Assembly (NCBI GenBank): GCA_963845185.1
Contig: CAWJRG010000001.1
Coordinates: 64,001-128,000 of the forward strand
Direction of reading: 5' to 3'
DNA length: 64,000 nt
Origin: an uncultured bacterium
GTDB taxonomy: Bacteria; Oederibacteriota; PGYV01; CAWJRG01
Below are positions 1 through 30,260 of this stretch, one piece after another. Below the pieces are notes generated by a model. That model had not been told where the DNA came from and searched no databases. It saw only the letters and a list, made by a program, of their open reading frames with translations. Position 1 is the stretch's first letter; every line of letters starts with the position of its first letter. A program made the position numbers and the translations under genes.

Positions 1-3000
1 CCTGCGCGTTTTTCCCGTCCCATGTAATATAGCTCACGCCTGAGGTTGTATAAACTATTCCTATAGGCAGCGCTCCATTGCCCACAGCCACCACATTATT
101 AACCTTTAATTCCATCTGGCCTCCTGTGGGATTCGGCTCTGATATTGTCTGTACAAGCTCTCCCGCGCTGTTGAATATATTCACCTGCACGTACTGGTCT
201 TCGTTAATCGCGGTTATCTGCTTTGTTATTATATCTGAATGCCCGTACGGGTCTATTGTCGTTTCTTTTATGTAATACACACCGTCCGCCACATTCTGGC
301 CCGCGCTGTTTGTCCCGTCCCATGTAAAGCTCGCGTACCCGTTTTTCTGCTGGTCAGGCGTCTCCAGGCCCGGCACCTTTATTGTCAGCGGTGTCCCTGA
401 ACCGGGCGACACCACTGTTGCCTGATTGCCGTTCAGCAGCAGCTGCACCTGCTGCGCCTCCTGCGATGTCGTAGTACTTACTATTGTTTTCACAAGCTCG
501 CCTGCTTCGTTATACACGCTTATGTTCATTACATACGGGAACGGCACAGGCGTTATAGTTATTGTCACTGTCTGCGTGTTTGTGGATGTGTATGTTATTG
601 TCGCGCTTAGCGTGTTTGTCGCCGTGTTTGTTGTAGTCAATGTTCTTGTGTTTGTCCACGTCATTGTTGCTGTTATTGTGTCCGTGTATGTGTATGTCTG
701 CGTAAGTGTGCTGGTATATGTCGGTGTCGACGTTGACGTGTATGTAGGAGTATCCACCGGCGTATCTGTGTATGTCGATGTCAATGTGTATGTGTATGTC
801 AGTGTAAGCGTGCTGCTTGAAGTAATGCTTACAGTAGGCGTGAACGTAGGCGTGTCTGTCGGCGTATCCGTGTTTGTCGGTGTATCTGTCGGCGTGCTGC
901 TAGGTGTCGGGCTTACAGTCGGCGTATCCGTCGGCGTATCTATTGGCGAATTCGTATATGTAGGTGTCGCTGTATCTGTCGGTGTCCACGTCGGTGTGTT
1001 TGTATACGTCGATGTCGGCGTACCCGTATCAGTTTCTGTACTTGTGTATGTATATGTCGGCGTATCTGACGGGGTATCAGTTTGCGTATATGTCAGGGTC
1101 GTTGTTTTTGTCACAGTATATGTAGGCGTGAACGTCGCTGACAGTATCACAACCGTGAATGTCATTGTTATCGTGTATGTCGGCGTATCTGTATTTGTAT
1201 ATGTAGGCGTCGACGTGCTTGTGTCAGTCACTGTCTGCGTGTATGTATATGTAGGTGATGTCGTGTTTGTGTACGTTGGTGTTGCCGTCGGTGTATCTGT
1301 CTGCGTGTCTGTCACGGTTATTGTCCTTGTTGCCGTGTATGTTGGCGTATATGTCGCGGACAGTATTACAACCGTGAATGTCATTGTTATAGTGTATGTC
1401 GGCGATACCGTATCCGTATATGTCCCTGTCGCCGTACTTGTGTCTGTTACTGTTTGCGTGTACGTGGATGTAGGCGATGTCGTGTTTGTGTATGTTGGTG
1501 TCGCCGTCGGCGTATCCGACTGCGTATCTGTCACGGTTATTGTCCTTGTTGCCGTGTATGTCGGCGTAAATGTCGCGGACAGTATCACCACCGTGAATGT
1601 CATTGTTATCGTGTATGTAGGCGTTACTGTATTTGTATATGACGCCGTATTCGTGCTTGTGTATGTTACTGTCTGCGTATATGTAGGTGTAGGCGATGTC
1701 GTGTTTGTGTATGTCGGTGTCGTAGTCGGCGTATCTGTCTGCGTATATGTCACGGTTATTGTCCTCGTTGCCGTGTATGTTGGCGTGAACGTAGCCGATA
1801 GTATTACAACCGTGAATGTCATTGTTATCGTGTATGTAGGTGATACCGTATCCGTATATGTCGCAGTATTCGTGCTTGTGTACGTCACTGTCCGCGTGTA
1901 TGTTGGCGTGGGTGACATTGTATCTGTGAATGTCGGCGTTGCCGTCATTGTAACCGTCTGCGTGTCTGTCAGGGTTATTGTATCTGTAGGCGTATTTGTC
2001 CTGGTTATCGTGTATGTTGGCGTATATGTCGCGGATAATATAACGACAGTGAATGTCATTGTTATCGTATATGTCGGCGTCACTGTATTTGTAACTGACG
2101 GCGTATTCGTCATTGTGTCTGTGTATGTGTATGTATATGTCACTGTCCTCGTGTATGTCGGCGTCGGCGACATCGTATCCGTGTATGTAGGCGTCGCTGT
2201 CGGCGTCACTGTCTGCGTATCTGTAAGCGTTATTGTATACGTCGGTGTATTTGTCCTGGTTATCGTAAATGTCGGCGTATATGTCGCGGACAGTATCACT
2301 ACAGTGAATGTCATTGTTATCGTGTATGTCGGCGTTATTGTAGACGTATCAGTAGGCGTTACCGTAACGGTATCCGTATATGTATATGTGTATGTGACTG
2401 TGCGGGTGTATGTCGGCGTCGGTGATGCCGTGTTTGTGAATGTCGGCGTAGGGGTCGGTGTATCAGTCAGAGTGAATGTCGGAGTATATGTCCTGGTAAA
2501 TGTCACTGATACTGTAATTGTCACTGTTGAAGTATAAGTCGGCGTCGCTGTCACCGTAACAGTATTTGTATATGTGTATGTCACTGTCTGAGTGTATGTA
2601 GGCGTATACGTCCTGGTAAATGTAACTGACACTGTATCTGTCACAGTTAAAGTGTCGGTCGGCGTAGGCGTCACTGTAATTGTATCTGTGTATGTATACG
2701 TCACTGTCCGCGTGTATGTGGGCGTCGGCGATAGCGTGTTTGTGAATGTCGGCGTCGGTGTCGGCGTATCAGTCTGCGTGTATGTCGGCGTATCTGTCCT
2801 TGTGAATGTAACTGACACTGTATTTGTCACTGTTAAAGTAAACGTAGGCGTCGGCGTTATGGTGACGGTATCCGTGTATGTATATGTAACTGTCTGGGTG
2901 TATGTGGCCGTCGGCGTATTTGTCCTTGTAAATGTCGGTGTGGGTGTTGATGTATTTGTATATGTAGGTGTATATGTATTCGTGTATGTCGGCGTCTGCG

Positions 3001-5323
3001 TAGGCGTATTTGTCCTTGTCGCTGAAGGCGTATAAGTATTTGTATAAGTGTAAGTATATGTGTAAGTGTATGTTACTGTGTTTGTATAAGTATCTGTCGG
3101 CGTCGGGGTCCTTGTAAATGTCGGCGACGGCGTATTTGTATAAGTATACGTGCTTGTCGGCGTATCTGTCCTGGTAAATGTATATGTTGGAGTAAATGTT
3201 GGCGTGGGTGATGCATTTGGGTTAACAGTAGGTGTAGGTGTCATTGTAGGTGTTACAGTGAAAGTCGGGGATACGCACGAAACGCTGAATACCACAGGAT
3301 TTGAAAATTCTGAGACTATGCCTGTCGCGCCTATGCCTCCGACATTTGTAAAAGTCACGGCGCACGCTGATGTTGTTGCCCACCACGTGTATGAGCCGCT
3401 CTGGTCGCTTATATTGCCCATGCTCCAGTTTAGCAAGCCGCCTGTATCTGTCCCGACCGGATTTGAATTTACATAAGTCAACCCTGTCGGTATCGTGTCA
3501 AACAATGTCGCGTTTGCTGCTACTCTTGGGATAAGTGTAGTAAAGTTATTATATGAATCCTGCACACTGCCATCCTGGTCGCCTCCCTGCTCGTTCACGC
3601 CGGGCCTCCAGTCAGTGTATGTAGCGCCTGTACCACAGTTAAAATCAGTAGTAGCCGCGCCAGTGTCTGTCCATGTTATCTGGTATGCTGTCGGCTCAGG
3701 CTGGCCCACTAACCAAATCTTTGACTGGAACACATAATCATTGCCGTTTTGCGTCATCCATGTCTTTGTATGGTACCATGTATTCGCTGTTATTGTCAAA
3801 GTTGTGCCGCCAGTCTGCGCCGGCGAATATATACATGAACCCGATCCTGTACCCAAGCATTTCTGGTATGCTATATAAGCATTTGCCGGAGCCGTATCTA
3901 TTGATAAAAGCAGGTTATAAGTACGCAGGTTCGTATCTGTGTACCCATTTGCCCTTAAAATTATCAGGGCATCCGCGCCCGGGTAATCCCCGGGATTAAT
4001 CATTGCATCTGCTTCAACTATACCTGTGCACATCTGAACATTGGCAGGTGTCGGGTCGTCTAATAGCAATCCCGGATACTGGGCAGCTGCCGAAACACTG
4101 CCTGTCATTATCCTGTCGCCGGTACCACACGGGTCTGATATTGTCCACGTGCCGTTATATGTTCCGCCAAAAGGCAAAAACTTCCATCCCGAAGGCGGCA
4201 AGCCTGAATAAGCCCCTGTTGTAGTATCGTCAAATGACCTGTATGCCTTGAGCTGGTCCCCGTTTACCTGGTAATTGAGATAATATGTTATTGTAATTGA
4301 AGCGCCTGTAGTTTTTATAAAACTTGTCTGGCTCTCTATTTTTTGCACTGATATTGCTGCCTGGCCAACAGTCAGCGTCGCTGATGAACTGGTGTTATTT
4401 GTGTTAGCTGTGCCGTTTGCTGTATTTACCACCTGCGTGCCTGATGCCATTGCCGTGGTCATCCTCAATAGCATCCATACTGTCCCCGATTTTGTATAAG
4501 TTGAGGTTGGGAACGTCCATGTTACTGTGCCTGAAGTAGAACCTACCGCAGGCGAGCTCACTGTTCCTCCTGTTATTGAAGCAGGCCCTACTGACACGAG
4601 CGCCAGGCTGCCTCCGCCTGGTATAGCGTCTGTTATTGTAAGCGGCCCATTGCCGTATGTGTAATCTACGGAAAACAAAACCAGGTCCCCTACATTTTGC
4701 AAAACACCTTCTACCCTTTTATTTAATGCAAGTGAATTCGCGGGCGGCGCAGGTACGGTCCATGATACTACGTTCATTTCACAGCCGGTTAAAGCAGGCC
4801 AGCCTCCCGATGAACCTTCAAGGTCGTACTCTGCCGTACCTACAAGTAAATAAAGCGTGCTTGCGTTTCCGTTGCATGCTGACGCACCCAGGTCGCTTGC
4901 GACCGGCATGGTAAGGTTGTATGTCAATGTGCGTAGTCCGCCGTTGGAACCGCTGCAATCAGTGCAGGTGTCTTCATTATACGCTACATTTGACACTGCT
5001 TCGTACCCAAGTTCACCGCCCTGCCATAGATTCTGGTATGTATTTTTTACATTTACGCCGTTAACGCCTACCAGAAAAATCTGCTTTCCTGAACCTGGGG
5101 TTGATGGTGTATTTTGTGTACTTATTGCGACTCCTATATATGCCCCTCCGCTGTCCTCATCGCATATTTGCATGGTCAAAACAAAAGCCTGTCCCCATCC
5201 TGGGTTTGCAGGAGACATTGAAATAGACTCAACTTTCGGTCCCGCAGCATATAGGAGAGTACCTAATAAGGAAACAAGTGCTGTTAATATAAAAACCTTT
5301 TTTAACATTCTTAAGTTAAACAA
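1..5323 (-). CDS. Giant secreted Thr-rich surface protein (DUF11-like and ConA/LamG-like N-terminal domains, long T-x-T stalk, FlgD-Ig-like C-terminal domains); runs off the left edge
   Basis: Absent from the ORF track because there is no stop in the window. Manual reading gives (LFNLR)MLKKVFILTALVSLLGTLLYAAG.. with TTG 5323 (GGAG upstream) or ATG 5308. The same frame reads ..ITWDGKNAQ at positions 2-28. C-terminal part is paralogous to 8327..13498. Interior not checked codon by codon. Confidence 0.85.
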   Translation of the reverse strand, partial: MFNLRMLKKVFILTALVSLLGTLLYAAGPKVESISMSPANPGWGQAFVLTMQICDEDSGGAYIGVAISTQNTPSTPGSGKQIFLVGVNGVNVKNTYQNLWQGGELGYEAVSNVAYNEDTCTDCSGSNGGLRTLTYNLTMPVASDLGASACNGNASTLYLLVGTAEYDLEGSSGGWPALTGCEMNVVSWTVPAPPANSLALNKRVEGVLQNVGDLVLFSVDYTYGNGPLTITDAIPGGGSLALVSVGPASITGGTVSSPAVGSTSGTVTWTFPTSTYTKSGTVWMLLRMTTAMASGTQVVNTANGTANTNNTSSSATLTVGQAAISVQKIESQTSFIKTTGASITITYYLNYQVNGDQLKAYRSFDDTTTGAYSGLPPSGWKFLPFGGTYNGTWTISDPCGTGDRIMTGSVSAAAQYPGLLLDDPTPANVQMCTGIVEADAMINPGDYPGADALIILRANGYTDTNLRTYNLLLSIDTAPANAYIAYQKCLGTGSGSCIYSPAQTGGTTLTITANTWYHTKTWMTQNGNDYVFQSKIWLVGQPEPTAYQITWTDTGAATTDFNCGTGATYTDWRPGVNEQGGDQDGSVQDSYNNFTTLIPRVAANATLFDTIPTGLTYVNSNPVGTDTGGLLNWSMGNISDQSGSYTWWATTSACAVTFTNVGGIGATGIVSEFSNPVVFSVSCVSPTFTVTPTMTPTPTVNPNASPTPTFTPTYTFTRTDTPTSTYTYTNTPSPTFTRTPTPTDTYTNTVTYTYTYTYTYTNTYTPSATRTNTPTQTPTYTNTYTPTYTNTSTPTPTFTRTNTPTATYTQTVTYTYTDTVTITPTPTFTLTVTNTVSVTFTRTDTPTYTQTDTPTPTPTFTNTLSPTPTYTRTVTYTYTDTITVTPTPTDTLTVTDTVSVTFTRTYTPTYTQTVTYTYTNTVTVTATPTYTSTVTITVSVTFTRTYTPTFTLTDTPTPTPTFTNTASPTPTYTRTVTYTYTYTDTVTVTPTDTSTITPTYTITMTFTVVILSATYTPTFTITRTNTPTYTITLTDTQTVTPTATPTYTDTMSPTPTYTRTVTYTYTYTDTMTNTPSVTNTVTPTYTITMTFTVVILSATYTPTYTITRTNTPTDTITLTDTQTVTMTATPTFTDTMSPTPTYTRTVTYTSTNTATYTDTVSPTYTITMTFTVVILSATFTPTYTATRTITVTYTQTDTPTTTPTYTNTTSPTPTYTQTVTYTSTNTASYTNTVTPTYTITMTFTVVILSATFTPTYTATRTITVTDTQSDTPTATPTYTNTTSPTSTYTQTVTDTSTATGTYTDTVSPTYTITMTFTVVILSATYTPTYTATRTITVTDTQTDTPTATPTYTNTTSPTYTYTQTVTDTSTSTPTYTNTDTPTYTITMTFTVVILSATFTPTYTVTKTTTLTYTQTDTPSDTPTYTYTSTETDTGTPTSTYTNTPTWTPTDTATPTYTNSPIDTPTDTPTVSPTPSSTPTDTPTNTDTPTDTPTFTPTVSITSSSTLTLTYTYTLTSTYTDTPVDTPTYTSTSTPTYTSTLTQTYTYTDTITATMTWTNTRTLTTTNTATNTLSATITYTSTNTQTVTITITPVPFPYVMNISVYNEAGELVKTIVSTTTSQEAQQVQLLLNGNQATVVSPGSGTPLTIKVPGLETPDQQKNGYASFTWDGTNSAGQNVADGVYYIKETTIDPYGHSDIITKQITAINEDQYVQVNIFNSAGELVQTISEPNPTGGQMELKVNNVVAVGNGALPIGIVYTTSGVSYITWDGKNAQ

Positions 5324-5348
5324 GTATCGTCTCCATTGTTCAATAGAG

Positions 5349-5383
5349 TGTCATTGCGAGAAGCGTAGCGACGAAGCAATCTC
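5349..5383. repeat. REP/RPE-like palindrome half (TGTCATTGCGAG..AGCGACGAAGCAATCTC)
   Basis: Resembles the widespread GTCATTGCGAG..GAAGCAATC short palindromic repeat; second arm not seen. Confidence 0.55.
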
Positions 5384-5470
5384 GCCTTTAGAGGACCACG
5401 CTCCCTTTAATTGCCCGCAATCACAAAAACATTAGTTTTTCATTAATATTTTAAAGGTTAATACTAAGTT

Positions 5471-5498: not shown

Positions 5499-5636
5499 GG
5501 TGTATTTTTATCTATTTTTTACTATATTTTATTGGCTAGTGGAGCTACTTTAAAAACCACCGGAGGTTTATCATAAGCTCCCTCCGGAAAGATATAATTC
5601 AATCCCCCAAACCCGGTTGGGGGATTGCTTTCTGGA

Positions 5637-5758: not shown

Positions 5759-8197
5759 TTAATCACCTTGAATTTTCTTGATCATATCATATGCTTGCTT
5801 AAGTCCCAATTCTCCGGCCTTATTTAAATCTTCAATTGCTCCTTGTTTATCTCCTAAATTATTTTTAACAATTCCCCTGTTATAATAAGAAACCGCATAT
5901 CTTTGATTAAGTTCTATTGCTTTATTTAAATCCTTTAATGCGCCCTGCTTATCACCTAAATGATATCTAGCAACTCCGCGGTTACAATAAGTTTCCGCAT
6001 ACTTTGGATCAATCTCAATTGCCCTATTATAGTCTTCAATAGCTTCTTTATAATCACCTGAGCTGTTTTCGGCATCTCCCGACTGCAGATATTTACCCGC
6101 TTTATTATTATCAGAACTAACTAATTCAAGAACCTTGCTGTCATGGCTGCCATAATTTTTTGCATTTTCAAACATTTCCTTTGCCATTTTCAAATTTCCA
6201 TCCTTAAAATAAACAATCCCAAGTTCCTGATAAGCCTGCCAATAATCATGTTTCAACCCTATAGCCTTATTTAAATATTTTATTTGGTTGTCTTTGTCAT
6301 TTAAATCTTTATAAATATAAGATAATTTATAATAAAAAATAGGTTTATTTTCTTTCATTTCGCCTTCATAAGGAAAAAGCATAGCTTTTTTATAAAGTTT
6401 TAGTGCTCCGGCCGGATTTCCATCATGTAAAAGGTCCTCGCCCTGCAGCATCATGCAATAAAGATAAAATACAACGAGGTCTAAAGTTTGTTTGCTATAT
6501 TCAATGTATTTATCATATAATCCTCGATTATAAGAATAAAGCTCAAATATTTTAGGAGACATTGGTTTATCGTTTTTTAAATATTCCTGCAATAAACCAA
6601 TTTGTTTGAAATTATACCCTTTTAAATTATCCAGGAGTGGTGAATTTGTACTTTTAAATATTTTGATATTATTATTGCTGTAGTAAGTAATAATATTGCT
6701 TAAATTGTACGATGGATCTTTTTCTTTTAGTGGGATATTCCCGTATTTTTTAACAAAATTATCTATTCCCCATTTAAAGAATAAAGGAAATACGGATGCA
6801 AGTTTTACATCTTGTCTTTGTTTTTCAATTATTTGAATATAATAAAGCGGTATAAAATTAAAGTCGTCTTCGCAAAAATATAAACTATCCTTGTCTAAGG
6901 TTTTTAAAATATTATTACCGAAATCATATGCCTGATAATTATACCTGCTGTTGTTTTTTTTAAAATTTTTGTATCCAATAAATAATATAAATAAAAAAAT
7001 TACGGCCAAAAAAATATATTTAAAAGTTTTTTGTTTAAAAAATCCTAAAATAAAATGCATTCCTGCGGTAAGAAATAACAACAAAATATATTGGAACGGC
7101 ATAAGAAAAATACTGATAACCCATAGCAACCTTTCTTCGCTGTGGTTGTAGAAAACGACTGCAAAAATGATTATTAGAACTGCACTTAAATAAAAATAAA
7201 AAAGGTTTTTACTCTTTTTATTTATTGTATAACCGCCTGCAAACATTAAAATCCAAAGAATAGAATAATTGTTGAATAAAAGCGTAAAAAATTCTTTTAT
7301 TTGGTTTTCATATAGCTGTAAAGTTGGAGGCGTAGGATTACCATACGCAGTTCTTAATACTGTCCACCAAAAATATTCCCACGTGTTTGGTCTTGCCATA
7401 AAAACAAAAATGCCGTCTGTGCCGGCTCTTACAGGCAGGTAAAGATACGGGCTTAAACCGGCAAGCAGAAGCAAAATTATTGTAATAGTGTTTTTCTGAT
7501 TTATTTTTTGTCTGTATATAAAGAATATATATCCAAAAACCGGCAAAAGTATTATCATGCTGGGCCAGTGATTGCAAAGTGAAAGCCCGTAAATAAACGA
7601 CATAAGATAAAGATATTTAATAGCGGAGCTACCCGCTTTCATAGGCTCCTCAATATGCTCCCTCCCCGAAGCACTATCAATCCCAGCCTCTACAGCAGGC
7701 TGGGATTTTCGCGAAGCGGGATTAAACCCTTTAAATAATTTTATGCTTAGATATATCAATATTGCAAGAAACAAAAGATTCAGTATATATATGCCGCCTT
7801 TTGCCTCAATAGCCTGATTCCAGAAAATATAGGAAAAAGCCAGTATGAAAACGCCAAAAAAATCTATTATTTTATTTTCATAATTTAAAATATTAAAAGT
7901 AATTTGTTTGATAATATAATAACTTAATAACAGAACCAATATGGCAAGAAATATGGCAAATGAATTAATCCTGAAAGCTGGCGAGCCAATTGGCAATAAC
8001 GAAAACACTTTTCCAGCCATTGTGAAAAGCGGGTATCCGGGCGGGTGGCTTATTCCGAGGGTATATGCGGATGCTATTGTTTCAGGCGAGTCGTCATTGT
8101 TGAACGCAGGAAACATGGTATAAAGATACAATTGGGATATGGCTATTAAAGAAACCATTAGTATTATAATTTCTTTGTATTTTTTAATCATTTTCAC
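5759..8197 (-). CDS. DUF2723 / TMEM260-like GT-C glycosyltransferase with C-terminal TPRs
   Basis: N-terminal motif DDSPETIASAYTLGISHPPGYPLF, multiple TM helices, WNQAIEAKGGIY, TPR repeats (YNRAIEIDPKYAETYCNRG). Confidence 0.85.
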   Translation of the reverse strand: MKMIKKYKEIIILMVSLIAISQLYLYTMFPAFNNDDSPETIASAYTLGISHPPGYPLFTMAGKVFSLLPIGSPAFRINSFAIFLAILVLLLSYYIIKQITFNILNYENKIIDFFGVFILAFSYIFWNQAIEAKGGIYILNLLFLAILIYLSIKLFKGFNPASRKSQPAVEAGIDSASGREHIEEPMKAGSSAIKYLYLMSFIYGLSLCNHWPSMIILLPVFGYIFFIYRQKINQKNTITIILLLLAGLSPYLYLPVRAGTDGIFVFMARPNTWEYFWWTVLRTAYGNPTPPTLQLYENQIKEFFTLLFNNYSILWILMFAGGYTINKKSKNLFYFYLSAVLIIIFAVVFYNHSEERLLWVISIFLMPFQYILLLFLTAGMHFILGFFKQKTFKYIFLAVIFLFILFIGYKNFKKNNSRYNYQAYDFGNNILKTLDKDSLYFCEDDFNFIPLYYIQIIEKQRQDVKLASVFPLFFKWGIDNFVKKYGNIPLKEKDPSYNLSNIITYYSNNNIKIFKSTNSPLLDNLKGYNFKQIGLLQEYLKNDKPMSPKIFELYSYNRGLYDKYIEYSKQTLDLVVFYLYCMMLQGEDLLHDGNPAGALKLYKKAMLFPYEGEMKENKPIFYYKLSYIYKDLNDKDNQIKYLNKAIGLKHDYWQAYQELGIVYFKDGNLKMAKEMFENAKNYGSHDSKVLELVSSDNNKAGKYLQSGDAENSSGDYKEAIEDYNRAIEIDPKYAETYCNRGVARYHLGDKQGALKDLNKAIELNQRYAVSYYNRGIVKNNLGDKQGAIEDLNKAGELGLKQAYDMIKKIQGD
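7622..7720. repeat. 99-bp GC-rich palindromic element inserted in frame in the DUF2723 gene
   Basis: Adds PASRKSQPAVEAGIDSASGREHIEEPMKAGSSA, absent from paralog 20845..23187; hairpins ATCCCAGCCT/AGGCTGGGAT and CCCGCTT/AAGCGGG. Confidence 0.75.
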
Positions 8198-16984: not shown

Positions 16985-17049
16985 GTCCGCCGAAGCAGAA
17001 CGCATTCAACCACGTGCATAGCACGTAGTGTTCTGCGCAGGTGGATAAA
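16985..17049. repeat. REP/MITE-like nested palindrome
   Basis: TCCGCC..GCAGAAC..ACGTGC-ATA-GCACGT..GTTCTGC..GGTGGA nested stems. Confidence 0.55.
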
Positions 17050-19449: not shown

Positions 19450-19700
19450 CTTGATTTGGGTTACAGGTTTGCCAATATATCAAGGGTGACGTCTGTTGCC
19501 ACTGTTTACGATAGTCAAAATAATTTTGTGGTTGACCAGGGCGCCGGGACGGATAGTATTTCGATCTCCGGGGGTAATGTCCCTGTTGATTTTTCCGGCT
19601 TGACAATCGGGATTAATTTCGTTTATCACTTCCGTGGTTTGGCGGTAGAAGAATAATAAAAACGCAGGCCCGTTTCTGGCCCCTGACGGTTTGCTAAACA

Positions 19701-20844: not shown

Positions 20845-23187
20845 TTATTTCAATCCTTCTGCCTGTTCTATCTGATTGTATAAATTTTCAAGTCGTGGAT
20901 CATTACCAAATATTTGCATTGCTTCTCTTAAAGTATTCAATGCCTTGCCGGCTTGTCCCAATTTATAATATGTATAAGCGATATATGAGTAAATCGCAGC
21001 GTTCTTATCCCGTTCTTTTGCTTTTTGAAAATATTTTAGAGCTTCGTTAAAATTGTTTGTTTGAAAATTATATACACCTATATTTTTGTATATATCTACT
21101 GTTCTATAATAATTTTTATTCAAAAGGAATTCATAAATGTCCATAGCATTATCATATTCTCCTTTGGATAATAAACTTGTTGCCTGGTTAAACATGACCT
21201 CGTATTGAGTTGTTGCATCGCCATTTCTTATTGCGTTAATGTATGTTTGAAGTAATTCTTTTTTATCACTACCGTATTGTACTGCCTTTTCAAACATTTC
21301 TTCTGCCATAGGCAAAATTTTTTCATTGTAATAAATCATACCCAGTGCCGCGTATGCTTGCCAGTCGTCATTTTTCATCGCTATGGATTTTTTCAGGCAT
21401 TTCATTGATTCTCCTTCATAGCCCATTTCGTTATATCCCCAAGCTATATTAAAATACATGTGCTCTTCATCGCTTTTTTCTGCATATATAAGAGCTTTAT
21501 CATATAGTTTCTTCGCCTCAATGAAATTCTTTTCTTTTAAAAAATCCTTTGCCTGCATTGCCATCCTTTCGCCATACAATGACGCAATCAACTTATCATA
21601 ATAACTTTTCACATCATAAATATTCCTGTATGAATAAATTTTAAAAATATACGATGGCATGTGATCTTTTTCAACTGATACTTTATAAAGCAATCCTTTT
21701 GCTTTTAAAACGTAGTTTGAATTACTTCCCAAAATGTCGTTTGGATAACTGAAATAAAAATTGCCTTTAGATATAAAATTAATAATAATATTGCGTGTGT
21801 TATTCGTAAGCTCATGTTCTTTTAAATTAGAATATCCATATTTTTTTATAAAATCTTTTATTCCCCATTTAGTCTGTAAAGAATTAAAATTTACATAATT
21901 AAAATCGTTTCCACGATGTTCTATGTTCCGATAATATCCAAGTGGAATTTCATAAAAATCACTCGCAGGAATATATAAACTACCCGGATCAATTGTTTTA
22001 ATTTCATTACTTCCAAAATCATATGAAAGATAATTATATCTTTCATCATTTATTTTAAAATGCAAAAACAAGACATATAATAATATTACTATTAGAATTC
22101 CCAAAAAAATATTTTTGTGGATTTTTTTAATGAATACACCGGCTACAGTATATATTCCGTTTATTGAAAAACTCGCCAATAAATACAGAGAAGGCATTAA
22201 AAAAGTGCCTACTGACCATTCAAATTGCTCGGTCAAATGTACGGAAAAAGTTACTATAAACAGATTCAATGCTAATATGCTCAAATAAAGAAATGAAATT
22301 TCCTTTTTTACCCGTCGTAGTGAATAAAACCCAAAAATAGCAAATATCAAAAATAAGTATATATTTATAAAAAATAAATTCAGCATTTCTTTTATATGAT
22401 AATTCTTGACATGTATAGTCGGAAAACCGGCATGCCCATAATCACGCAAGAAAATCATCCGGAACAAATTCTCTAAATTATCAGGTTTAATCATAAGGAC
22501 AAAAATATTTTCAGTTCTAGATCTTATCAGAAGATAAAGGTATACGCTCAAACCTACAAATAAAAACAACAAACAAATAATGTAATTTTGTAAATTTAAT
22601 TTTTCCCTGTATTTATAAAAAAAATAACTAAGAAAAGGTAAAAAAATTATGACACTTGGCCAGTGATTTGTAAGCGAAAGTCCAAAAATATAGATTATAA
22701 AGTATAAATATTTAATATCGAAAGCATCTAACAAACGCAAACTTAGAAACATTAAAGCAGATAAGAATAAAAGGTTTAAAATATATATTCCGCCTTTTGC
22801 CTCAATTGCCTGGTTCCAGTACATATAGGAAGACGCAAGAAGAAAAACACCTAAAAAATTAATAATTTTGTTCTCATAATTAAAAATTTTAAAAATAATA
22901 CTTTTAGTAAGATAATAAAACAATAACAGCACTATTATAGCAAGAAATATGGCAAATAAATTCACCCTAAAAGCGGGAGAGCCAAGCGGCAAATACGAAA
23001 ATACTTTTCCCACAATTGTATAAAGCGGGTATCCGGGAGGATGGCTTATTCCGAGTGTATATGCGGATGTTATTGTTTCAGCCGAGTCGTCACTTTTAAA
23101 TGCCGGAAACGTTGTATAAAGATACAATTGATATATAGCAATTAAACATACTAATAATATTATAAAGTCTTTGTATTTTTTAAGCAC
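20845..23187 (-). CDS. DUF2723 / TMEM260-like GT-C glycosyltransferase with TPRs (paralog 2)
   Basis: DDSAETITSAYTLGISHPPGYPLY, WNQAIEAKGGIYILN, TM helices, C-terminal TPRs. Confidence 0.85.
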   Translation of the reverse strand: MLKKYKDFIILLVCLIAIYQLYLYTTFPAFKSDDSAETITSAYTLGISHPPGYPLYTIVGKVFSYLPLGSPAFRVNLFAIFLAIIVLLLFYYLTKSIIFKIFNYENKIINFLGVFLLASSYMYWNQAIEAKGGIYILNLLFLSALMFLSLRLLDAFDIKYLYFIIYIFGLSLTNHWPSVIIFLPFLSYFFYKYREKLNLQNYIICLLFLFVGLSVYLYLLIRSRTENIFVLMIKPDNLENLFRMIFLRDYGHAGFPTIHVKNYHIKEMLNLFFINIYLFLIFAIFGFYSLRRVKKEISFLYLSILALNLFIVTFSVHLTEQFEWSVGTFLMPSLYLLASFSINGIYTVAGVFIKKIHKNIFLGILIVILLYVLFLHFKINDERYNYLSYDFGSNEIKTIDPGSLYIPASDFYEIPLGYYRNIEHRGNDFNYVNFNSLQTKWGIKDFIKKYGYSNLKEHELTNNTRNIIINFISKGNFYFSYPNDILGSNSNYVLKAKGLLYKVSVEKDHMPSYIFKIYSYRNIYDVKSYYDKLIASLYGERMAMQAKDFLKEKNFIEAKKLYDKALIYAEKSDEEHMYFNIAWGYNEMGYEGESMKCLKKSIAMKNDDWQAYAALGMIYYNEKILPMAEEMFEKAVQYGSDKKELLQTYINAIRNGDATTQYEVMFNQATSLLSKGEYDNAMDIYEFLLNKNYYRTVDIYKNIGVYNFQTNNFNEALKYFQKAKERDKNAAIYSYIAYTYYKLGQAGKALNTLREAMQIFGNDPRLENLYNQIEQAEGLK

Positions 23188-23292: not shown

Positions 23293-23324
23293 AGAAAGAG
23301 CGGATTTTTGAATCCGCTCTTTCT
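23293..23324 (-). terminator. Hairpin, probable terminator
   Basis: AGAAAGAGCGGATT-TTTG-AATCCGCTCTTTCT. Confidence 0.65.
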
Positions 23325-23446: not shown

Positions 23447-23767
23447 TTACTGGTGTCTTTGCATAACTGGCGATACGACAGTTGCAACTTTTTTTAGCCT
23501 TTGGGCTTTTTTGGCTTTTAAAGAAGCTTCTAACATTTCTTTTGGTGATACTGCTGTATTTTCCATAGCTGCCGTTTTCATTGCTGGTGTCGTTGCCGCA
23601 ACAGGCGATGAAATAGCTACAACTGTTTTCGGCCTTTTCGCCTTTTTGGCTTTTAGCATGACTATTTTTTCCAATGCTGTTCCCGTTGTATTTCCCGGGG
23701 CTGTCGTTGCAGCGAAAATCGATACTGCAAACAGCAAAGCTGCCGCTGTTACGATTAACTTTCTCAT
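23447..23767 (-). CDS. Small secreted basic protein with an internal duplication
   Basis: AGGAGG RBS, signal peptide, LKAKKA..SPV motif twice. Confidence 0.7.
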   Translation of the reverse strand: MRKLIVTAAALLFAVSIFAATTAPGNTTGTALEKIVMLKAKKAKRPKTVVAISSPVAATTPAMKTAAMENTAVSPKEMLEASLKAKKAQRLKKVATVVSPVMQRHQ

Positions 23768-23792
23768 GATATTACCTCCTGAATTTTATATG

Positions 23793-26700
23793 TCACTTTA
23801 TGACCGCTATTTTTTTCCTTACAACCTTTCCTTCCGCCTGAATCGTGAGTAAATATACGCCGTTTGCCACTTCAACGCCAGCGTCATTCCGCAAATTCCA
23901 TATAACATAGTTTACTCCTCTGTTAACCGAAGCTGCATTTAAACTCTTGCCCCATACCTTACGGCCGTTTATGTCATATATCCCGATATTGACGTCCGTA
24001 GGCGCGGATAATGAGAATCTTATAGTTGTCGGGCCATTGCACGGATTCGGGAAATTATACGTATTGTTTGCCGACATTGCCTCCGGCGTAGGCGTAGTTA
24101 CATTTTTTACTATACTATTAGCCTTTGCTGCCTTGATGACATTACCTGTCACCCCTGGACAGTTATATTCCATTACTGAAGCTCCTAAATAAGAAGTTGA
24201 AAAATCCTGAAATGCCACATAAGGCGTTCCGTTAGAAATATATAAGGATGGATAGTCGACCTGCTCTGACGTGAAATCCTGACTTCCTACGTAATACCAA
24301 CCAAATACACTATTTTCCGTTGTATATTCTTCTACTGAGAGTTTTTCTGCTCCAACTGCTGAATCATCCACATAAGCCACATATGGAGTTCCGTTAGAGA
24401 TATATAAAGATTCTCCGTATGCATTCCCTGGCGAGAACCCTTCATTTCCTACATAGTACCAACCAAGTACACTATTTTCCGTAGTGTATTCTTCTACTGT
24501 TGCTGGACCGTTGCTACCATCTTCATACGCCAGATACGGTATGACAGTTGTTCCGTTATTATAGACATACAAAGATTCAGAGTATGCCGCACTTGCCGAG
24601 AACGCAGCTTTTCCTACTGTGTACCAGCCAAGTACACTATTTTGTGTAGTATATTCCATCACTGTCGCGCCAGACGAATTCTGAACATCCTGATATGCTA
24701 CATACGGTATCCCGTTAGAAACATATAAAGATTCATAATATGCAGCACCTGCCGAGAATCCCTCGGTTCCTACGTAATTCCAGCCAAGTACACCATCTAC
24801 CGTAGTATAGTTCATCACGGTTGCTGCACCATTTTTATTACTATCCGAGAATGCCACATACGGTATAGGCGTTGCTGTGCTATCATCTATAAATAGGGAC
24901 ACATCCTGTGCTGACCAAATCGAGAACCCTTCATTTCCTACGTAGTACCAACCAAGTCCGTTTTTTCCCGTATAATATTCCATTACTGTTACCGCACCGT
25001 TTTTATTACTATCCGAAAACGCCACATATGGATTCCCCGAGCTATTATCTATAAATAGAGATGTATAGGATGCCGCACCTGGTGAGAATCCTTCGTTTCC
25101 TACGAAGTACCATCCCAGTGTATCACCTATCATAGTATATTCCATTACTGTTGCTGCCTGGCTTTTATTATAATCCGAAAATGCCACATAGGGCGTATCT
25201 CCATAAAAATATAAAGATTCATATGTTGCCTGCTGCACACCTCCAGAGAACCCCTGCGTACCCACATTCTGCCAGCTCATGGCGCATGTCGCCGTACTTG
25301 TCGGTGTTCCAGTATATGTCGGCGTTGCTGTCGGCGTCCATGTCGGTGTGAATGTGCGTGTAGATGTTGGCGGCAATGATTTGGTTGAAGTGACTGTATA
25401 TGTTACGCTTCTTGTTTTTGTCGGTGTATTTGTAGGCGTCCATGTCGGCGTATTTGTCCGTGTTGCTGTGCGTGTACCTGTCTTTGTTGCTGTAGGTGTA
25501 GCCGTATATGTCACGCTTCTTGTTTTTGTCGGCGTATTAGTCGGTGTATAAGTGTGTGATACTGTGGCTGTTCGCGTGCCTGTTTTTGTAATTGTCGGCG
25601 TGAATGTACGTGATACTGTAACTGTTCGCGTGCTAGTTCTTGTGTTTGTTGGTGTCCATGTAGGCGTGTTTGTACGTGTTGCTGTCTGAGTAAATGTGTA
25701 AGTGGCAGTTATGGTATATGTGAATGTCGGCGTCTGTGTGATGGTATTTGTCGCACTTGGGCATTTACCGAATTCCTGGATTCTGTCATTACCAGTATCT
25801 GCAACGTAGATGTCTCCGCTGCTGTTTGCTGCCATTCCCCACGAATCATTAAACTGCCCGTTATTGCTCCCGGGAGTACCCCATTGCGTTATAAAGCACC
25901 CTACATTGTTAAATTCTTCGATTCTATTATTGTTCCTGTCGTCAACATAAACGTTTCCGCTGCCGTCTACTGCCAATTCAAAAGGACCGTTAAACTGACC
26001 ATTGCCGCTTCCCATATTACCCCATTGCAGTATGTATGCGCCTGTATTGCTGAATTTTTCGATTCTGCTATTACCAGTATCTAAAACATAAATGTTTTCG
26101 TTGCTGTCTATTGCGATTCCTTCGGGACTATTAAACTGCCCGTTGCCGGTTCCATTACTGCCCCATTGTGTTACATATATGCCTGTACTGGTGAATCTTT
26201 GGATATTTTGAATCCCATTATCTGCAACAAAAACGTCTCCATTACTGCTTCCACCGCTATTGTCTACTGCCAGTTCCCAAGGATACACAAACTGCCCGTT
26301 GCCGCTTCCATAACTACCCCATTGTAGTATGTAATTACCTAAGCTGTCAAATTTTTGAATCCTAAAATTACCCTGGTCCGCAACATACACATTGCCACTG
26401 CTGTCTACTGCCACTCCAATAGGACTAGAAAACTGCCCAGTGCCATTACCTCCACTACCCCATTGCAGTATGAAATTACCTGAGCTATCAAACTTTTGGA
26501 TATTATTATTAGTATAATCTGAAACATATACGTTCCCGTTGTTATCAACAGCTATTCCAAAAGGATTATTAAACTGGCCGTTGCCGGTTCCGGGAGTGCC
26601 CCATGCTGTAATAAAACACGGAGTCGGTTCCGGTGATGCTATGCAAATAGTAGCCGTTGGTGTATATGTCGGCGTCGGTGTACTGGTATAGGTTGGGCTA

Positions 26701-29700
26701 GCGCATGTACCGAATTTTTCGACTCTGCTGTTATTCGTGTCCGCGACATAAACATCCCCGCTGCTGTCTGTCGCCACTCCAAAAGGCATATTAAACAGCG
26801 CACTGCTGCCCAATTGCATTATATAGCATCCCGCGCTGTTGAATTCCTGGATTCTGTTATTATCCGTATCCGCAACATAAACATCCCCGCTACTGTCTAC
26901 GGTTATTCCATAAGGATTCTCAAACATTCCTGCGCCATTTCCAGCATAACCCCATTGTTCCAGAAGTGTTGTTCCCGTACTGTTAAATTCTTCAATTCTG
27001 TCATTACCGTAGTCTATGACATAAACATCTCCGCTGCCGTTTACTGCAACTCCCGAAGGGCCATTTAACAGCCCATTCATGGTTCCGGAACCATTCCATT
27101 GCCTTATATATCCTCCCGAATTATTGAATTCTATGATTCTATTATTACCATAGTCCGCGACATACACTCCGTTGCTGTCTACTGCTATTCCAAAAGGAAA
27201 ATTAAAGTTCCCGTTGCCGCTTCCGGAACTGCCCCATTGCGCTAAAAGTGTCGTCCCCGAGCTGTTGAATTTTTCGATTCTGTTATTCAACATGTCTACA
27301 ACATAAACGTTCCCGCTGCTGTCTAAGGCTATTCCAGCAGGACCATCAAACTGCCCGTTGCCGCTCCCGGTACTACCCCATTGTGCCAAAAGGGTTCCTG
27401 ACGAGTCTAATTCATCAACTACGTCATTGCCAAAGTCTGCAAAATATACGTCCTCGCTGCTGTTTACTGCTATTCCCCATGGACTTTCAAACAGCCCATT
27501 ATCAATCCCTCCACTACCCCATGTTGAAAGTAAACACGGGGTCGGTTCCGGTGATGCTATACAAATAGTAGCCGTCGAAGTATATGTCGGCGTAATTGTC
27601 ATTGTGCTCGTTGGCTGTGTGCTTGTACATGTCGGTGTCTGTGTGAACGTGTATGTCCCTGTTGATGTAAATGTTACATCCAGAGTATTGGTCGGTGTGG
27701 TGCAGGCACATGTGTTTTTAAACTTGTATATCGTCATGCCAGGCCCCGCGACGAATATGCTTTGCGTTGAATTTTCAAGCGCCATGCACTCTGTGTAATT
27801 TCCGGTATTAACACTGCCGCCGTTGAACGTAGTGTCAGGGTAGCCATTCCCCAAAAAGGCCCAAAGTCCCCCGTTAGGGCCGCTAGGACATCCATATCCT
27901 TGTACTATTATTCTGTTGCAATAATCAAATCCCACTGTCCACGCCAAGGAAGGTCCATAAACAAAATTATTATCTACATAGAATCCATTTCCGTTAAAAC
28001 TCAAGTCCGGGTTTCCTGTGCTGCTGCTTAATCTCCCGACAAACATTGCCTCTTCTATGGCACTGCTTGTAATGCCCGTTATAACTATATTCCCAGAGCT
28101 GTCTATTTTTATATCATATCCTCCTACAGAACTAGGGTTTAGTCCACCCGATGCAGAAGACATTGTTCCCGGTATCGGGTAATAAATCCCCGCTCCGCCG
28201 AGACTGCCAAAAGTACCTACAGGAATACCAGATGAATTTAATTTCCATACAACTACTTCAGGGCCTGCACCTGCCGGATATTCGGCACCGGCAACATAAA
28301 CATTGTCCGAACTATCTAATGTAATGCCCCAACCAACAGAATTTGATGTTAATGTATCAATATAATAGCCTGTCTGGCTACCAGGGCTGCCCGAACCGAA
28401 ATTTTGGTCAAGAGTCCCATCTGGCAGATATCTTGCGACAAACATGGTTGAATTGCTATAATTTGAAATGCTAAACCCTGTAACATATATCCTATTGGAA
28501 GAATCTACCACAACTTTCCACGCAATACTTACACCGTTACCCGTAAATAATTGAACATAACCCGTGCCTGCAAAAGTTGTATCAAGGCTTCCATCCTGGT
28601 TATATCGCCACACCATAGCAGACCCTGTACCCCCCCCAAAGTATGGGTTGGCACATCCATATCCAGACGCAACAATTTTATCCTGATAATTCCCGCCAAC
28701 TAGCATCCTGCTTATTGCTACACCATATGCCCATGTAGTTGTATTAGGCAAGGTACTAAAAACCGTAAATCCCTGACCGCCATAATTAAGGTCCAAAGTC
28801 CCGTTGGGAGTATATCTCCATATTACCATGTAATTTAAAAAATTTATATCGTTATAACTTTCACCAACTGTTATAACATTATTACTTGAGTCAAGCGCGA
28901 TGCCATATGCAAAGTCATTTCCATATGGGGTGCCTGCTGAATAATTCTTGGTCACCTGGCCTGTGCCGCCAAAACTTTTGTCAGGGACTACACATGTTGA
29001 GCTGACAAGCGGCCCCATAGACATGGGTCCGGCACCACCTCCCGGAGCAGTACCCAAAATTGGAACCCCGCTTAAATATGCTGGTATTTGGGTATTATTG
29101 ACAAAATCCGTCGTATTAATATAGCTCCAGTCATTTGACTGGTTATAATCGCTCCAGTCGCTCTTATGGACGTTGACTTGCACCTCTATGTATTGTCCCG
29201 GCAAAAGAAAACCGGTTTGTATATCAAAACTGATTTCTATGAATGAATCCTGGGTGCCTTGTGTTTGCTTGACAATGTATGCTCTGGTGTGTCCCGAAAT
29301 ATCAGTTCCCTGCGGCATTATTTTTGATGATACCATCTGCAGGATTTCAGGCTGGCTTGACCCCTCATCTTTCCAGTAACGTATTTCGGTCATGCCAATC
29401 AGCATTGGCGCATAGTAGTAGTTATAAAGCCTGATTATGGGATTTATTACATTCGGCATTATTGCGGCTGGCCTGTAAGTTAAATTCAAAGCGGATGGCG
29501 GCGGGGTTGGTGTTGTTGTCGGAGTACTCGTCAATGTTGAAGTGGCTGTGGCTGTTACCAGAAATATCTGTACCGTTTCATTGCCGCTGTTGTCCCCGCA
29601 ATAACCGCCGTAAACATCATCCGTGGTAAAATATAAATAATTTTTTGTTGCCGTTATTACCACCGGATTATATGGCTGATAAAAACCGAGAATTTGCGCG

Positions 29701-30260
29701 TCGCTGCAGTTATAAAATACCGGGCCGTTATTATATGCGCCGTACCCTACTGTCGAATATGAACTGGTAAGGTTTGTGCCGTTTGTATCCGCTGCCTGCC
29801 TTATCCTCAGCCGTGTTCCATACAAATTATTGTCTGTGTTGTCGGTTCCGTACGATATGCACCCGCTCAACAGGTTCACTTCGTATAAATTTCCCGGTGT
29901 CACCTGCACCTGGACCGCCGCTGCTGCCTCTGTAACGGGATAAGGCTCTTGGGGACAATTTAAAAGGCCATTCACTGTTATAGTTTGGCCAGAACCTGAC
30001 TGCATGGAAGACATGCTGCTCCCTGTAGTCTGGGCCTGTGCGGCCGTATTTACGGTAAGACTGCTCGAACCGGATGATTGTATTATTTGGGGCGTCGGTC
30101 CTGGCGGTACAGGCGTAGGCTGGCCTGCATATAATATTGAATTTAAAATGAAAAATAACAAAATAACAAAATAAGAAATTTTTTTCGATTTATTTGATTG
30201 TTCCCTTGCCCTCGCATCCATAAAGCACCCCTTTTCATGTTTTTTATTTTTATAGTTCAT
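23793..30260 (-). CDS. Giant multidomain surface protein: CBM3, delta-60-like propeller, two NHL propellers, Thr stalk, third propeller, T9SS-CTD/FlgD-like tail
   Basis: CBM3-like EIRYW..IEISF..VHKSDWSDYNQSNDWSY; DGSLDTTF repeats; FNNPFGIAVDSSGNVYVAD repeats; YNFPNP..IYDINGRKV..ANGVYL..KKIAVIK. Start may be ATG 30221. Confidence 0.9.
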   Translation of the reverse strand: MNYKNKKHEKGCFMDARAREQSNKSKKISYFVILLFFILNSILYAGQPTPVPPGPTPQIIQSSGSSSLTVNTAAQAQTTGSSMSSMQSGSGQTITVNGLLNCPQEPYPVTEAAAAVQVQVTPGNLYEVNLLSGCISYGTDNTDNNLYGTRLRIRQAADTNGTNLTSSYSTVGYGAYNNGPVFYNCSDAQILGFYQPYNPVVITATKNYLYFTTDDVYGGYCGDNSGNETVQIFLVTATATSTLTSTPTTTPTPPPSALNLTYRPAAIMPNVINPIIRLYNYYYAPMLIGMTEIRYWKDEGSSQPEILQMVSSKIMPQGTDISGHTRAYIVKQTQGTQDSFIEISFDIQTGFLLPGQYIEVQVNVHKSDWSDYNQSNDWSYINTTDFVNNTQIPAYLSGVPILGTAPGGGAGPMSMGPLVSSTCVVPDKSFGGTGQVTKNYSAGTPYGNDFAYGIALDSSNNVITVGESYNDINFLNYMVIWRYTPNGTLDLNYGGQGFTVFSTLPNTTTWAYGVAISRMLVGGNYQDKIVASGYGCANPYFGGGTGSAMVWRYNQDGSLDTTFAGTGYVQLFTGNGVSIAWKVVVDSSNRIYVTGFSISNYSNSTMFVARYLPDGTLDQNFGSGSPGSQTGYYIDTLTSNSVGWGITLDSSDNVYVAGAEYPAGAGPEVVVWKLNSSGIPVGTFGSLGGAGIYYPIPGTMSSASGGLNPSSVGGYDIKIDSSGNIVITGITSSAIEEAMFVGRLSSSTGNPDLSFNGNGFYVDNNFVYGPSLAWTVGFDYCNRIIVQGYGCPSGPNGGLWAFLGNGYPDTTFNGGSVNTGNYTECMALENSTQSIFVAGPGMTIYKFKNTCACTTPTNTLDVTFTSTGTYTFTQTPTCTSTQPTSTMTITPTYTSTATICIASPEPTPCLLSTWGSGGIDNGLFESPWGIAVNSSEDVYFADFGNDVVDELDSSGTLLAQWGSTGSGNGQFDGPAGIALDSSGNVYVVDMLNNRIEKFNSSGTTLLAQWGSSGSGNGNFNFPFGIAVDSNGVYVADYGNNRIIEFNNSGGYIRQWNGSGTMNGLLNGPSGVAVNGSGDVYVIDYGNDRIEEFNSTGTTLLEQWGYAGNGAGMFENPYGITVDSSGDVYVADTDNNRIQEFNSAGCYIMQLGSSALFNMPFGVATDSSGDVYVADTNNSRVEKFGTCASPTYTSTPTPTYTPTATICIASPEPTPCFITAWGTPGTGNGQFNNPFGIAVDNNGNVYVSDYTNNNIQKFDSSGNFILQWGSGGNGTGQFSSPIGVAVDSSGNVYVADQGNFRIQKFDSLGNYILQWGSYGSGNGQFVYPWELAVDNSGGSSNGDVFVADNGIQNIQRFTSTGIYVTQWGSNGTGNGQFNSPEGIAIDSNENIYVLDTGNSRIEKFSNTGAYILQWGNMGSGNGQFNGPFELAVDGSGNVYVDDRNNNRIEEFNNVGCFITQWGTPGSNNGQFNDSWGMAANSSGDIYVADTGNDRIQEFGKCPSATNTITQTPTFTYTITATYTFTQTATRTNTPTWTPTNTRTSTRTVTVSRTFTPTITKTGTRTATVSHTYTPTNTPTKTRSVTYTATPTATKTGTRTATRTNTPTWTPTNTPTKTRSVTYTVTSTKSLPPTSTRTFTPTWTPTATPTYTGTPTSTATCAMSWQNVGTQGFSGGVQQATYESLYFYGDTPYVAFSDYNKSQAATVMEYTMIGDTLGWYFVGNEGFSPGAASYTSLFIDNSSGNPYVAFSDSNKNGAVTVMEYYTGKNGLGWYYVGNEGFSIWSAQDVSLFIDDSTATPIPYVAFSDSNKNGAATVMNYTTVDGVLGWNYVGTEGFSAGAAYYESLYVSNGIPYVAYQDVQNSSGATVMEYTTQNSVLGWYTVGKAAFSASAAYSESLYVYNNGTTVIPYLAYEDGSNGPATVEEYTTENSVLGWYYVGNEGFSPGNAYGESLYISNGTPYVAYVDDSAVGAEKLSVEEYTTENSVFGWYYVGSQDFTSEQVDYPSLYISNGTPYVAFQDFSTSYLGASVMEYNCPGVTGNVIKAAKANSIVKNVTTPTPEAMSANNTYNFPNPCNGPTTIRFSLSAPTDVNIGIYDINGRKVWGKSLNAASVNRGVNYVIWNLRNDAGVEVANGVYLLTIQAEGKVVRKKIAVIK

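Follow-up and report, generated by a model that had tools for sequence, protein, structure and literature searches.

The closest described relative of the enzymes considered here is human TMEM260, which, in the sections of two reports available to us, is an endoplasmic reticulum (ER) protein O-mannosyltransferase for IPT domains, with structures deposited under PDB 9rql, 9rqm and 9rqn (10.64898/2026.03.17.711096; PMC10214176). According to these sections, its residues D52, H67, R264 and Y267 take part in donor binding and D441, located in a Rossmann-like domain, is the catalytic base (10.64898/2026.03.17.711096; PMC10214176). The available part of the first report further describes that these residues are required for activity, that the tetratricopeptide repeat (TPR) domain is necessary and sufficient for binding the acceptor peptide, that this peptide is held in an extended form with regularly spaced prolines, and that an R355A variant has ~20% of its activity left, so that R355 is not essential (10.64898/2026.03.17.711096). 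Here, we analyzed a 64,000-nucleotide stretch (positions 64,001 to 128,000 of contig CAWJRG010000001.1, assembly GCA_963845185.1), hereafter called the window, from the genome of an uncultured FCPU426/Goldbacteria-like bacterium of a peat bog. Two window genes encoding putative transferases of the same family (PF11028), hereafter DUF2723#1 and DUF2723#2, stand in an array with genes encoding giant threonine-rich proteins, and we found that such adjacencies are enriched in this genome. An initial annotation of the array had proposed a dedicated O-glycosylation system, with each enzyme glycosylating the threonines of its neighbors.

Other described systems resemble this locus in part. OGT (GT41), a soluble enzyme of the GT-B type with a nucleotide sugar as donor, and TMTC1-4 (GT105) read their acceptors through TPRs and, as the window proteins do, join a catalytic module to a TPR superhelix; OGT and the TMTCs nevertheless belong to other catalytic families, the window proteins being PF11028 members. 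Protein mannosyltransferases (PMTs, GT39) carry a MIR domain and, in yeast and actinobacteria, mannosylate Ser/Thr/Pro-rich regions of secreted proteins. They have the same fold as DUF2723#1 (Z 25.2 for Pmt1-Pmt2 and 24.1 for Pmt4), and both would take the sugar from a lipid phosphate and act on an exported acceptor that is unfolded, but the window enzymes belong to PF11028 and have a TPR domain in place of MIR. The serine-rich repeat adhesin loci of Gram-positive cocci embody a similar idea, since a repeat-rich stalk adhesin is encoded there beside its own glycosyltransferases; these are, however, cytoplasmic GtfA/GtfB enzymes that use nucleotide sugars and the adhesin is exported by an accessory Sec system (SecA2/SecY2), whereas the enzymes studied here would act after export, and a Pfam scan found no GtfA/GtfB-type or SecA2/SecY2 genes among the window open reading frames (ORFs). 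TMEM260 is itself compared with TMTC and OGT in the part of the earlier report at hand (PMC10214176). As for the general system for O-glycosylation in Bacteroidota, it is described, in the section of the report available to us, as periplasmic and as modifying many exported proteins and cargo proteins of the type IX secretion system (T9SS) type (PMC10897501). It differs from what we consider here in that a preassembled oligosaccharide is transferred onto D(S/T)X, a motif that we tried and rejected for the giants of the array, where D[ST][AILMTV] is not enriched (10, 17 and 7 occurrences vs shuffled means of 11.4, 14.9 and 7.4).

In the literature that we searched, DUF2723 is mentioned only as distant bacterial homologues of TMEM260, and we found no description of a pairing between DUF2723 genes and Thr-rich giants, in agreement with the initial annotation, which knew of none. 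Searches on bacterial TPR-linked O-oligosaccharyltransferases returned Bacteroidota glycoproteomes or unrelated work, and the words threonine, glycosylat*, linker and mannosyl did not occur in a word search of the Goldbacteria single-cell paper (PMC7031533).

DUF2723#1 (812 aa; window 5759..8197, minus strand) and DUF2723#2 (780 aa; 20845..23187, minus strand) scored 96 bits (E 3e-27) and 90.7 bits (E 1.3e-25), respectively, against the PF11028 profile, for a cut-off of 24.2. This profile search confirmed the family membership that had initially been deduced from a motif, which reads DDSPE...HPPGYPL in DUF2723#1 and DDSAE...HPPGYPL in DUF2723#2. Matches to the human TMEM260 chain 9rql_A (E 2.9e-22 for DUF2723#1; E 1.4e-20 over residues 16-446 for DUF2723#2) showed that the homology spans the transmembrane (TM) part and the Rossmann-like (luminal) part, with D36, H51, R282, Y285 and D445 of DUF2723#1 standing for human D52, H67, R264, Y267 and D441; of these, D36 and H51 fall in the first periplasmic loop, and R264 and Y267 are the human contacts to donor phosphate and sugar. 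The same catalytic residues are retained in DUF2723#2, in which the D441 equivalent is the Asp of 'PASDF'. Among the 25 paralogs encoded by this genome, the equivalents of D52 and Y267 are retained in 25/25, those of H67 and D441 in 24/25 each (the paralog without the D441 equivalent being a copy truncated by an insertion sequence (IS)) and that of R264 in 20/25, with alignment slippage in some of them. When we aligned 53 sequences, corresponding to the 24 intact paralogs of the genome and to 29 sequences from five relatives of the same order, D36, E39, Y285 and D445 were found to be invariant.

An AlphaFold2 model of DUF2723#1 built from this alignment (pLDDT 88.1, pTM 0.83) shows a TM module (residues 1-415), followed by a Rossmann-like alpha/beta domain (~420-545, with five strands at 439-539) and by TPR helices (~569-773). 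Using Foldseek, TPR proteins ranked top, and matches to the glycosyltransferase C (GT-C) fold surfaced in a second look by VIA fold comparison, with a library that held no TMEM260 entries: Z was 25.9 for STT3 (422 aligned residues), 25.2 for Pmt1-Pmt2 (372), 25.2 for ArnT (445), ~25 for ALG12 and 24.1 for Pmt4, these matches covering 360-445 aligned residues, with PglB within Z 22-26 and AftA/B at Z 19-21. The TPR part of the window protein matched OGT TPR chains with E ~3e-18. The GT-C fold and the acidic residues on which the initial annotation depended are thus both present, in the form of a model with Z ~25 and of the retained D36/D445 equivalents. Judged by their sequences, both window genes are intact TMEM260-family GT-C enzymes; from the retained residues and the model, we infer that they are very likely to be active GT-C transferases, and the DUF2723 enzymes as a group are probably periplasmic protein O-glycosyltransferases.

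The window enzymes therefore share with TMEM260 a Pfam family, the equivalents of five key residues and the GT-C plus Rossmann-like plus TPR build, but several differences also stand out. Instead of dolichyl phosphate mannose (Dol-P-Man), a sugar carried on a bacterial polyprenyl phosphate would serve as donor, R355 is not kept, 25 paralogs are found here as opposed to a single gene in human, and the acceptor proposed here is a (T-x)n stalk of low complexity, whereas the human acceptor is a strand of a folded domain.

Such stalks are found in the two giants that flank DUF2723#1. On one side, a 1723-aa Thr-stalk giant with 32% Thr (8327..13498, minus strand) has three FlgD_ig stretches at its C-terminus and a stop codon located 130 nt upstream of DUF2723#1. 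On the other, the downstream Thr-stalk giant (28% Thr; 1..5323 of the window, minus strand; 1913 aa in full, at 63582-69323 of contig C1, its 3' end lying 418 nt past the window start) combines a signal peptide and a head with a (T-x)n stalk that alternates strictly, and carries a FlgD_ig domain at its C-terminus. The probability of finding Thr two positions after a Thr is 0.81 in the 1723-aa giant and 0.74 in the 1913-aa giant, and that of finding it at the next position is 0.03-0.04 in both; x is mainly P, Y, N, S, F, V, D or I. An extended (T-x)n chain of this kind would have an all-threonine face and could form a regular folded structure instead of a disordered mucin-like stalk. The heads of both Thr giants gave no Pfam family at E<=1. 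The third giant of the array, encoded upstream of DUF2723#2, is a secreted 2155-aa protein (23793..30260, minus strand) that contains beta-propeller repeats, those of NHL type among them, linkers rich in Thr (up to 38% per 200 aa) and a Por_Secre_tail/FlgD_ig C-terminal domain (32.6 bits for Por_Secre_tail vs a cut-off of 27). A CBM3 domain initially assigned to this protein was not recovered, as no Pfam family matched residues 225-400 even at E<=1. By these C-terminal domains, the window giants qualify as carriers of the C-terminal sorting domain (CTD) of T9SS-type cargo; a SprA_N search of the genome for the T9SS machinery gave no match, control genomes being equally silent, and Pfam returned no IPT/TIG domain at E<=0.01 for any of the three neighboring giants.

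We then considered how often genes of the two kinds adjoin across the genome (3.5 Mb, 99.4% complete, 11 contigs), using 2906 non-overlapping ORFs and defining as Thr-rich any ORF whose Thr content reaches 40% or more over a segment of 200 residues. This definition gave 54 non-overlapping Thr-rich ORFs (55 in the raw list, which adds up to 284 kb or ~8% of the genome). Strikingly, 5/25 DUF2723 genes, at four loci, directly adjoin a Thr-rich ORF, compared with 0.88 expected from 1271 other genes of at least 300 aa (binomial P=0.0016), and none of 2000 trials with random 2.3-kb intervals placed five of them within 500 bp of such ORFs. When genes encoding either a Thr stalk or a FlgD_ig CTD were taken together (110 genes), the count rose to 8/25 vs 1.93 expected (P 4e-4). 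Low-GC3 genes (GC3, G+C content at third codon positions) outside the family adjoin giants in only 1/112 cases, which rules out AT-rich islands or plastic regions as the cause of the adjacency, and a general effect of membrane glycosyltransferases is ruled out by the PMT_2 genes (1/28 adjacent, 1.04 expected) and the Wzy_C genes (0/11). Looking from the giants outward, the families recurring within two genes of them are CTD proteins (14), DUF2723 (6) and an unnamed family (6), all others occurring at most three times; GT2 genes are found near giants in 3/18 cases vs ~1 expected (counted by hand), which is too few for a claim. With T for a Thr giant and D for a DUF2723 gene, the orders T-D-T and T-T-T-T-D-D-T each occur on one strand. 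Altogether, these counts support an adjacency that is enriched in this genome and specific to the DUF2723 family.

The 25 PF11028 matches of this genome are all above the cut-off and correspond to 24 whole genes and one split by an IS. In the split paralog (locus L005, C5 466250-469905), the divider is an IS3-type element (HTH_Tnp_1 and rve ORFs) that parts a 334-aa N-terminal ORF (C5 468901-469905) from a 500-aa TPR-bearing ORF. A tree of the 25 copies with 31 from the five same-order genomes contains one clade with 15 copies of this genome vs one or two in relatives and a second with four vs one in relatives, such that two expansions specific to this lineage account for 19/25 copies. On this tree, the five adjacencies amount to five changes (shuffled mean 4.7); they thus arose independently and were not inherited with duplicated enzyme-giant units, ruling out en-bloc duplication of such units. 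Paralog pairs have ratios of nonsynonymous to synonymous substitution rates (dN/dS) of 0.15-0.30, from which the paralogs are taken to be under purifying selection, and for several of these pairs divergence is greater in the TPR or Rossmann-like parts than in the TM part. Their composition is unusual as well: 14/25 copies, including every giant-adjacent one, rank among the 5% of genes poorest in G+C, their GC3 being 0.25-0.33 vs a genome mean of 0.46, whereas in the five relatives the GC3 of DUF2723 genes equals that of their neighbor genes. Since clades of this genome have dS near 1, neither recent transfer nor simple duplication accounts for the low GC3.

A transferase of this type would need a lipid-linked sugar, and the genome encodes 18 GT2 proteins, among them several with similarity to polyprenyl-phosphate sugar synthases (ArnC-, PgfS- and dolichyl-P-hexose transferase-like), all of them below curated cut-offs. 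The best candidate has 317 aa and two C-terminal hydrophobic stretches (PgfS 3e-50, ArnC 4e-46), and lipid-linked sugar donors are plausible in this organism on the basis of these similarities. A further GT2 protein of 237 aa (L169, C6 24462-25175), which is also ArnC/dolichyl-phosphate hexose transferase-like below cut-offs, is encoded two genes away from one of the Thr giants in the C6 array and might produce the lipid-linked sugar donor. The genome also encodes 28 PMT_2-type GT-C proteins (482-1503 aa) and 11 Wzy_C (O-antigen-ligase-like) proteins, several of them TPR-tailed, and its set of membrane glycosyl-transfer genes is unusually large.

Considering what is known of human TMEM260, the window enzymes may work as three-part machines. 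Their multi-helix membrane module would bind a polyprenyl-phosphate sugar, their periplasmic Rossmann-like domain would present the Asp that serves as the catalytic base in the human enzyme, and their TPR 'fingers' would make up the third part. A single sugar would then most likely be moved, on the outer side of the inner membrane, from the lipid-phosphate donor to Ser/Thr residues of Sec-exported, unfolded polypeptides, the acceptor being chosen by the diversified Rossmann-like/TPR part. A Pro-containing (T-x)n stalk that is unfolded at the Sec channel fits, by analogy, the grip of the human enzyme. On several independent occasions, members of these expansions have landed beside Thr-stalk or CTD genes, and this repeated landing makes the stalks the leading acceptor candidates of the two window enzymes, not of the whole family. 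The interpretation that we tentatively put forward, at a little under even chances, is then that these are TMEM260-type transferases for which stalks are targets of a lineage-specific subset, without fixed pairing. Its parts differ in strength: that the window enzymes modify Ser/Thr residues of proteins is rather likely, given their family and architecture, and that Thr stalks are among the targets of the window paralogs is possible, although we hold this with appreciable doubt. When enzyme residues 1-775 were modeled in complex with a stalk piece of 66 residues, the score was 0.00 vs a mark of 0.32, which counts neither for nor against the pairing.

A number of observations weigh against the interpretation that stalks are targets. 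At the level of the enzymes, the position of human R355, which contacts the sugar from transmembrane helix 10, is occupied by Ile in DUF2723#1 and by Thr in DUF2723#2, the equivalent being Arg in only 1/25 paralogs. Within the genome, 17/25 paralogs have neither a Thr nor a CTD neighbor and are found instead with ribosomal proteins S7/S12 and EF-G, RNase Y-YmdB, ParAB, UvrC, polyamine synthesis, ammonium transport and other genes, and, conversely, 48/54 Thr giants have no DUF2723 neighbor. The enzyme-giant gaps are 115-436 nt long, and a consensus scan found terminator-like hairpins on the minus strand in two gaps: one with an 11-bp stem (5600..5627), separating the DUF2723#1 stop from the start of the 1913-aa giant, and one with a 14-bp stem (23293..23324), between a small gene and DUF2723#2; the same scan found none on that strand in the 130 nt that separate the 1723-aa giant from DUF2723#1.

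Comparisons with other genomes add to this side of the balance. In up to 20 kb around all 45 PF11028 matches of the five same-order genomes (39 regions), a single paralog (L085) adjoins a Thr-rich ORF and one more (L084) lies within three genes of one, for an expected adjacency of ~0.6, a rough figure that was hand-scaled from pattern counts. Some enzyme genes of these relatives lie at contig ends (L060, L062, L075 and L078, with L065 ~200 nt from an end), so that an unassembled repeat gene could hide beside them. In a broader, motif-based scan with one genome per species (77 loci from FCPU426, Goldbacteria, Firestonebacteria, Elusimicrobia and others), 0/126 ORFs matching the full-length family profile adjoin a Thr-rich ORF, and such an ORF is present at only one of the 77 loci. 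A sample of 61 genomes from the phylum showed the family in 57/61, typically in 5-16 copies, and runs of ten alternate Thr codons (TxTx) in 44/61; 17/61 genomes have at least two copies of the family but zero TxTx runs, 12/61 have at least 400 TxTx runs but 0-1 weak family match, and the copy number is not correlated with TxTx over the 61 genomes (rho -0.03). The two traits are thus uncoupled across the phylum sample, whereas within the order a higher copy number goes with more TxTx (rho 0.61, n=12, with no correction for kinship). Single-protein scans of genome contigs returned no close relatives, and a scan of metagenome contigs returned a single locus with a match to the TPR tail only. Neighborhood statistics, which the initial annotation had proposed as a check, therefore gave a divided answer: the enrichment holds in this genome and no enrichment near Thr-rich genes was found in either sample of relatives, the second result being one that the initial annotation itself had named as a refutation.

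These observations also bear on other ways to account for the array. The 25 paralogs might together provide general O-glycosylation, modifying many periplasmic or surface proteins through peptide features read by their TPRs, with adjacency devoid of functional meaning; adjacency could, for example, result from new copies favoring plastic, repeat-rich surface-protein arrays. Such generality would agree with the unrelated contexts of most paralogs, the lack of enrichment in relatives and the uncoupling across the phylum sample, and a passive origin of the adjacency would agree with the IS elements found within the array, with the paralog split by an IS and with the foreign-looking GC3 of the adjacent copies. 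It is harder to reconcile with the fact that other low-GC3 genes avoid giants, that other expanded membrane glycosyltransferase families are not enriched beside them and that the five placements are independent, and we consider it somewhat unlikely. A stricter alternative is the one from which the analysis started, with every paralog dedicated to the giant or giants that it adjoins in a fixed system making a mucin-like glycocalyx. The enrichment in this genome, the diversified acceptor-binding parts and the T-D-T and T-T-T-T-D-D-T orders on one strand would all be expected from it, but the many giants without an adjoining enzyme and enzymes without a giant, the lack of conservation of the arrangement in relatives and the existence of lineages rich in TxTx proteins with next to no family match make it improbable. 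The claim that each paralog glycosylates its neighbors was thus not upheld: this is not a conserved one-enzyme-per-neighbor system, and the family must serve other acceptors too. Selection of the substrate by TPRs, another part of that proposal, finds support in what the available section of the TMEM260 study describes for the acceptor peptide of the human enzyme (10.64898/2026.03.17.711096).

The acceptor might also not be a protein at all. A lipid, a lipopolysaccharide or a polysaccharide could be decorated, as in the cases of ArnT, the mycobacterial arabinosyltransferases and YfhO, with the TPRs serving for assembly. The fold matches to ArnT (Z 25.2) and AftA/B (19-21) are about as good as those to protein transferases, some paralogs adjoin Wzy_C-TPR, YfhO-like or GT4 genes, and the sugar-contacting R355 is not conserved. 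Set against this, the sole characterized PF11028 member is a protein O-mannosyltransferase, the Asp that activates the acceptor Thr hydroxyl is kept in 24/25 paralogs and is invariant in the 53 aligned sequences, and the peptide-gripping architecture of Rossmann-like domain plus TPRs is retained in the AlphaFold2 model, so that we see little chance of a non-protein acceptor. We therefore retain, as a tentative preference, TMEM260-type protein transferases with stalks as targets of a lineage-specific subset. This interpretation could be taken one step further into a 'one reader per substrate class' code, by which the TMEM260-like radiation would sugar-coat the ~54 giants into a mucin-like coat; we regard this extension as rather unlikely. 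The same modest expectation applies to its molecular form, in which each Rossmann-like/TPR module would read its own class of (T-x)n stalk or linker at the Sec exit.

If the reader code was true, a function would be assigned for the first time to bacterial homologues of TMEM260. The pairing can be tested, since enzymes with the key residues stand beside simple (T-x)n repeat acceptors that can be made as peptides. Should the link between enzymes and stalks be true, it would also imply that the TMEM260 branch of protein O-glycosylation is older than animals, explain the huge Thr-rich surface layer of uncultured cellulose-degrading peat bacteria and offer a natural set of 25 paralogs in which to study how acceptor choice is set by TPRs. 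Even if the stalk link fails, the presence of a multi-copy family in 57/61 genomes of the phylum argues that its substrate is important.

The array occupies window positions ~1-30 kb, with all genes outside an IS nest on the minus strand, and ORF calls and Pfam searches reproduced the gene order and sizes initially given. In the direction of transcription, it reads NHL giant, 106-aa ORF, DUF2723#2, TPR protein, IS nest, Thr giant, DUF2723#1 and Thr giant. The small ORF (106 aa; 23447..23767, minus strand), which precedes DUF2723#2, belongs to no known family and is Lys/Ala-rich, with a signal-peptide-like N-terminus. On the other side of DUF2723#2, a stand-alone TPR protein of 277 aa (19974..20807, minus strand; Pfam) with seven repeats and a hydrophobic N-terminus is encoded by a gene that begins 37 nt past the end of DUF2723#2; the same pairing of a DUF2723 gene with a TPR-protein gene is found again at the paralog C5 4156-6522, with a TPR ORF of 281 aa.

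The IS nest (13752..19453), recognized by its self-complementary arms and Pfam matches, contains a whole copy of a DDE-type IS (DUF772 and DDE_Tnp_1_6; 17820-19453) and an inverted second copy interrupted by another IS (rve_3 ORF at 14084-15085). The two DDE IS copies flank an ORF of 198 aa resembling an outer-membrane barrel, in a layout like that of a composite transposon. The arms of the nest, of 1339 nt and 300 nt, are 100% complementary, and this identity indicates that the two gene groups were contiguous, forming a single array until recently. The two groups are therefore not separate, as had been stated initially, but parted only by this nest.

Elsewhere in the genome, two other contexts of the family were seen. 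At L014 (C9 975780-982387), genes for a sigma54 activator, a DUF2723-TPR protein, a Wzy_C-TPR protein and a ROK kinase follow each other in a row. The order RNase Y-YmdB-DUF2723 occurs at L015 and, judging by ORF sizes, in four same-order genomes (L050, L055, L068 and L080), and its retention means that at least one paralog is an old, housekeeping-linked copy.

The remainder of the window (30-64 kb) encodes mainly housekeeping functions, together with one further giant with CHU_C (61961-63988). Directly downstream of the CHU_C giant lies an ORF of 335 aa (60865-61872, minus strand) without a Pfam match. It is one of a family of six, every member of which is encoded within two genes of Thr giants, and it could conceivably serve type-B T9SS cargo as a PorP/SprF-like partner.

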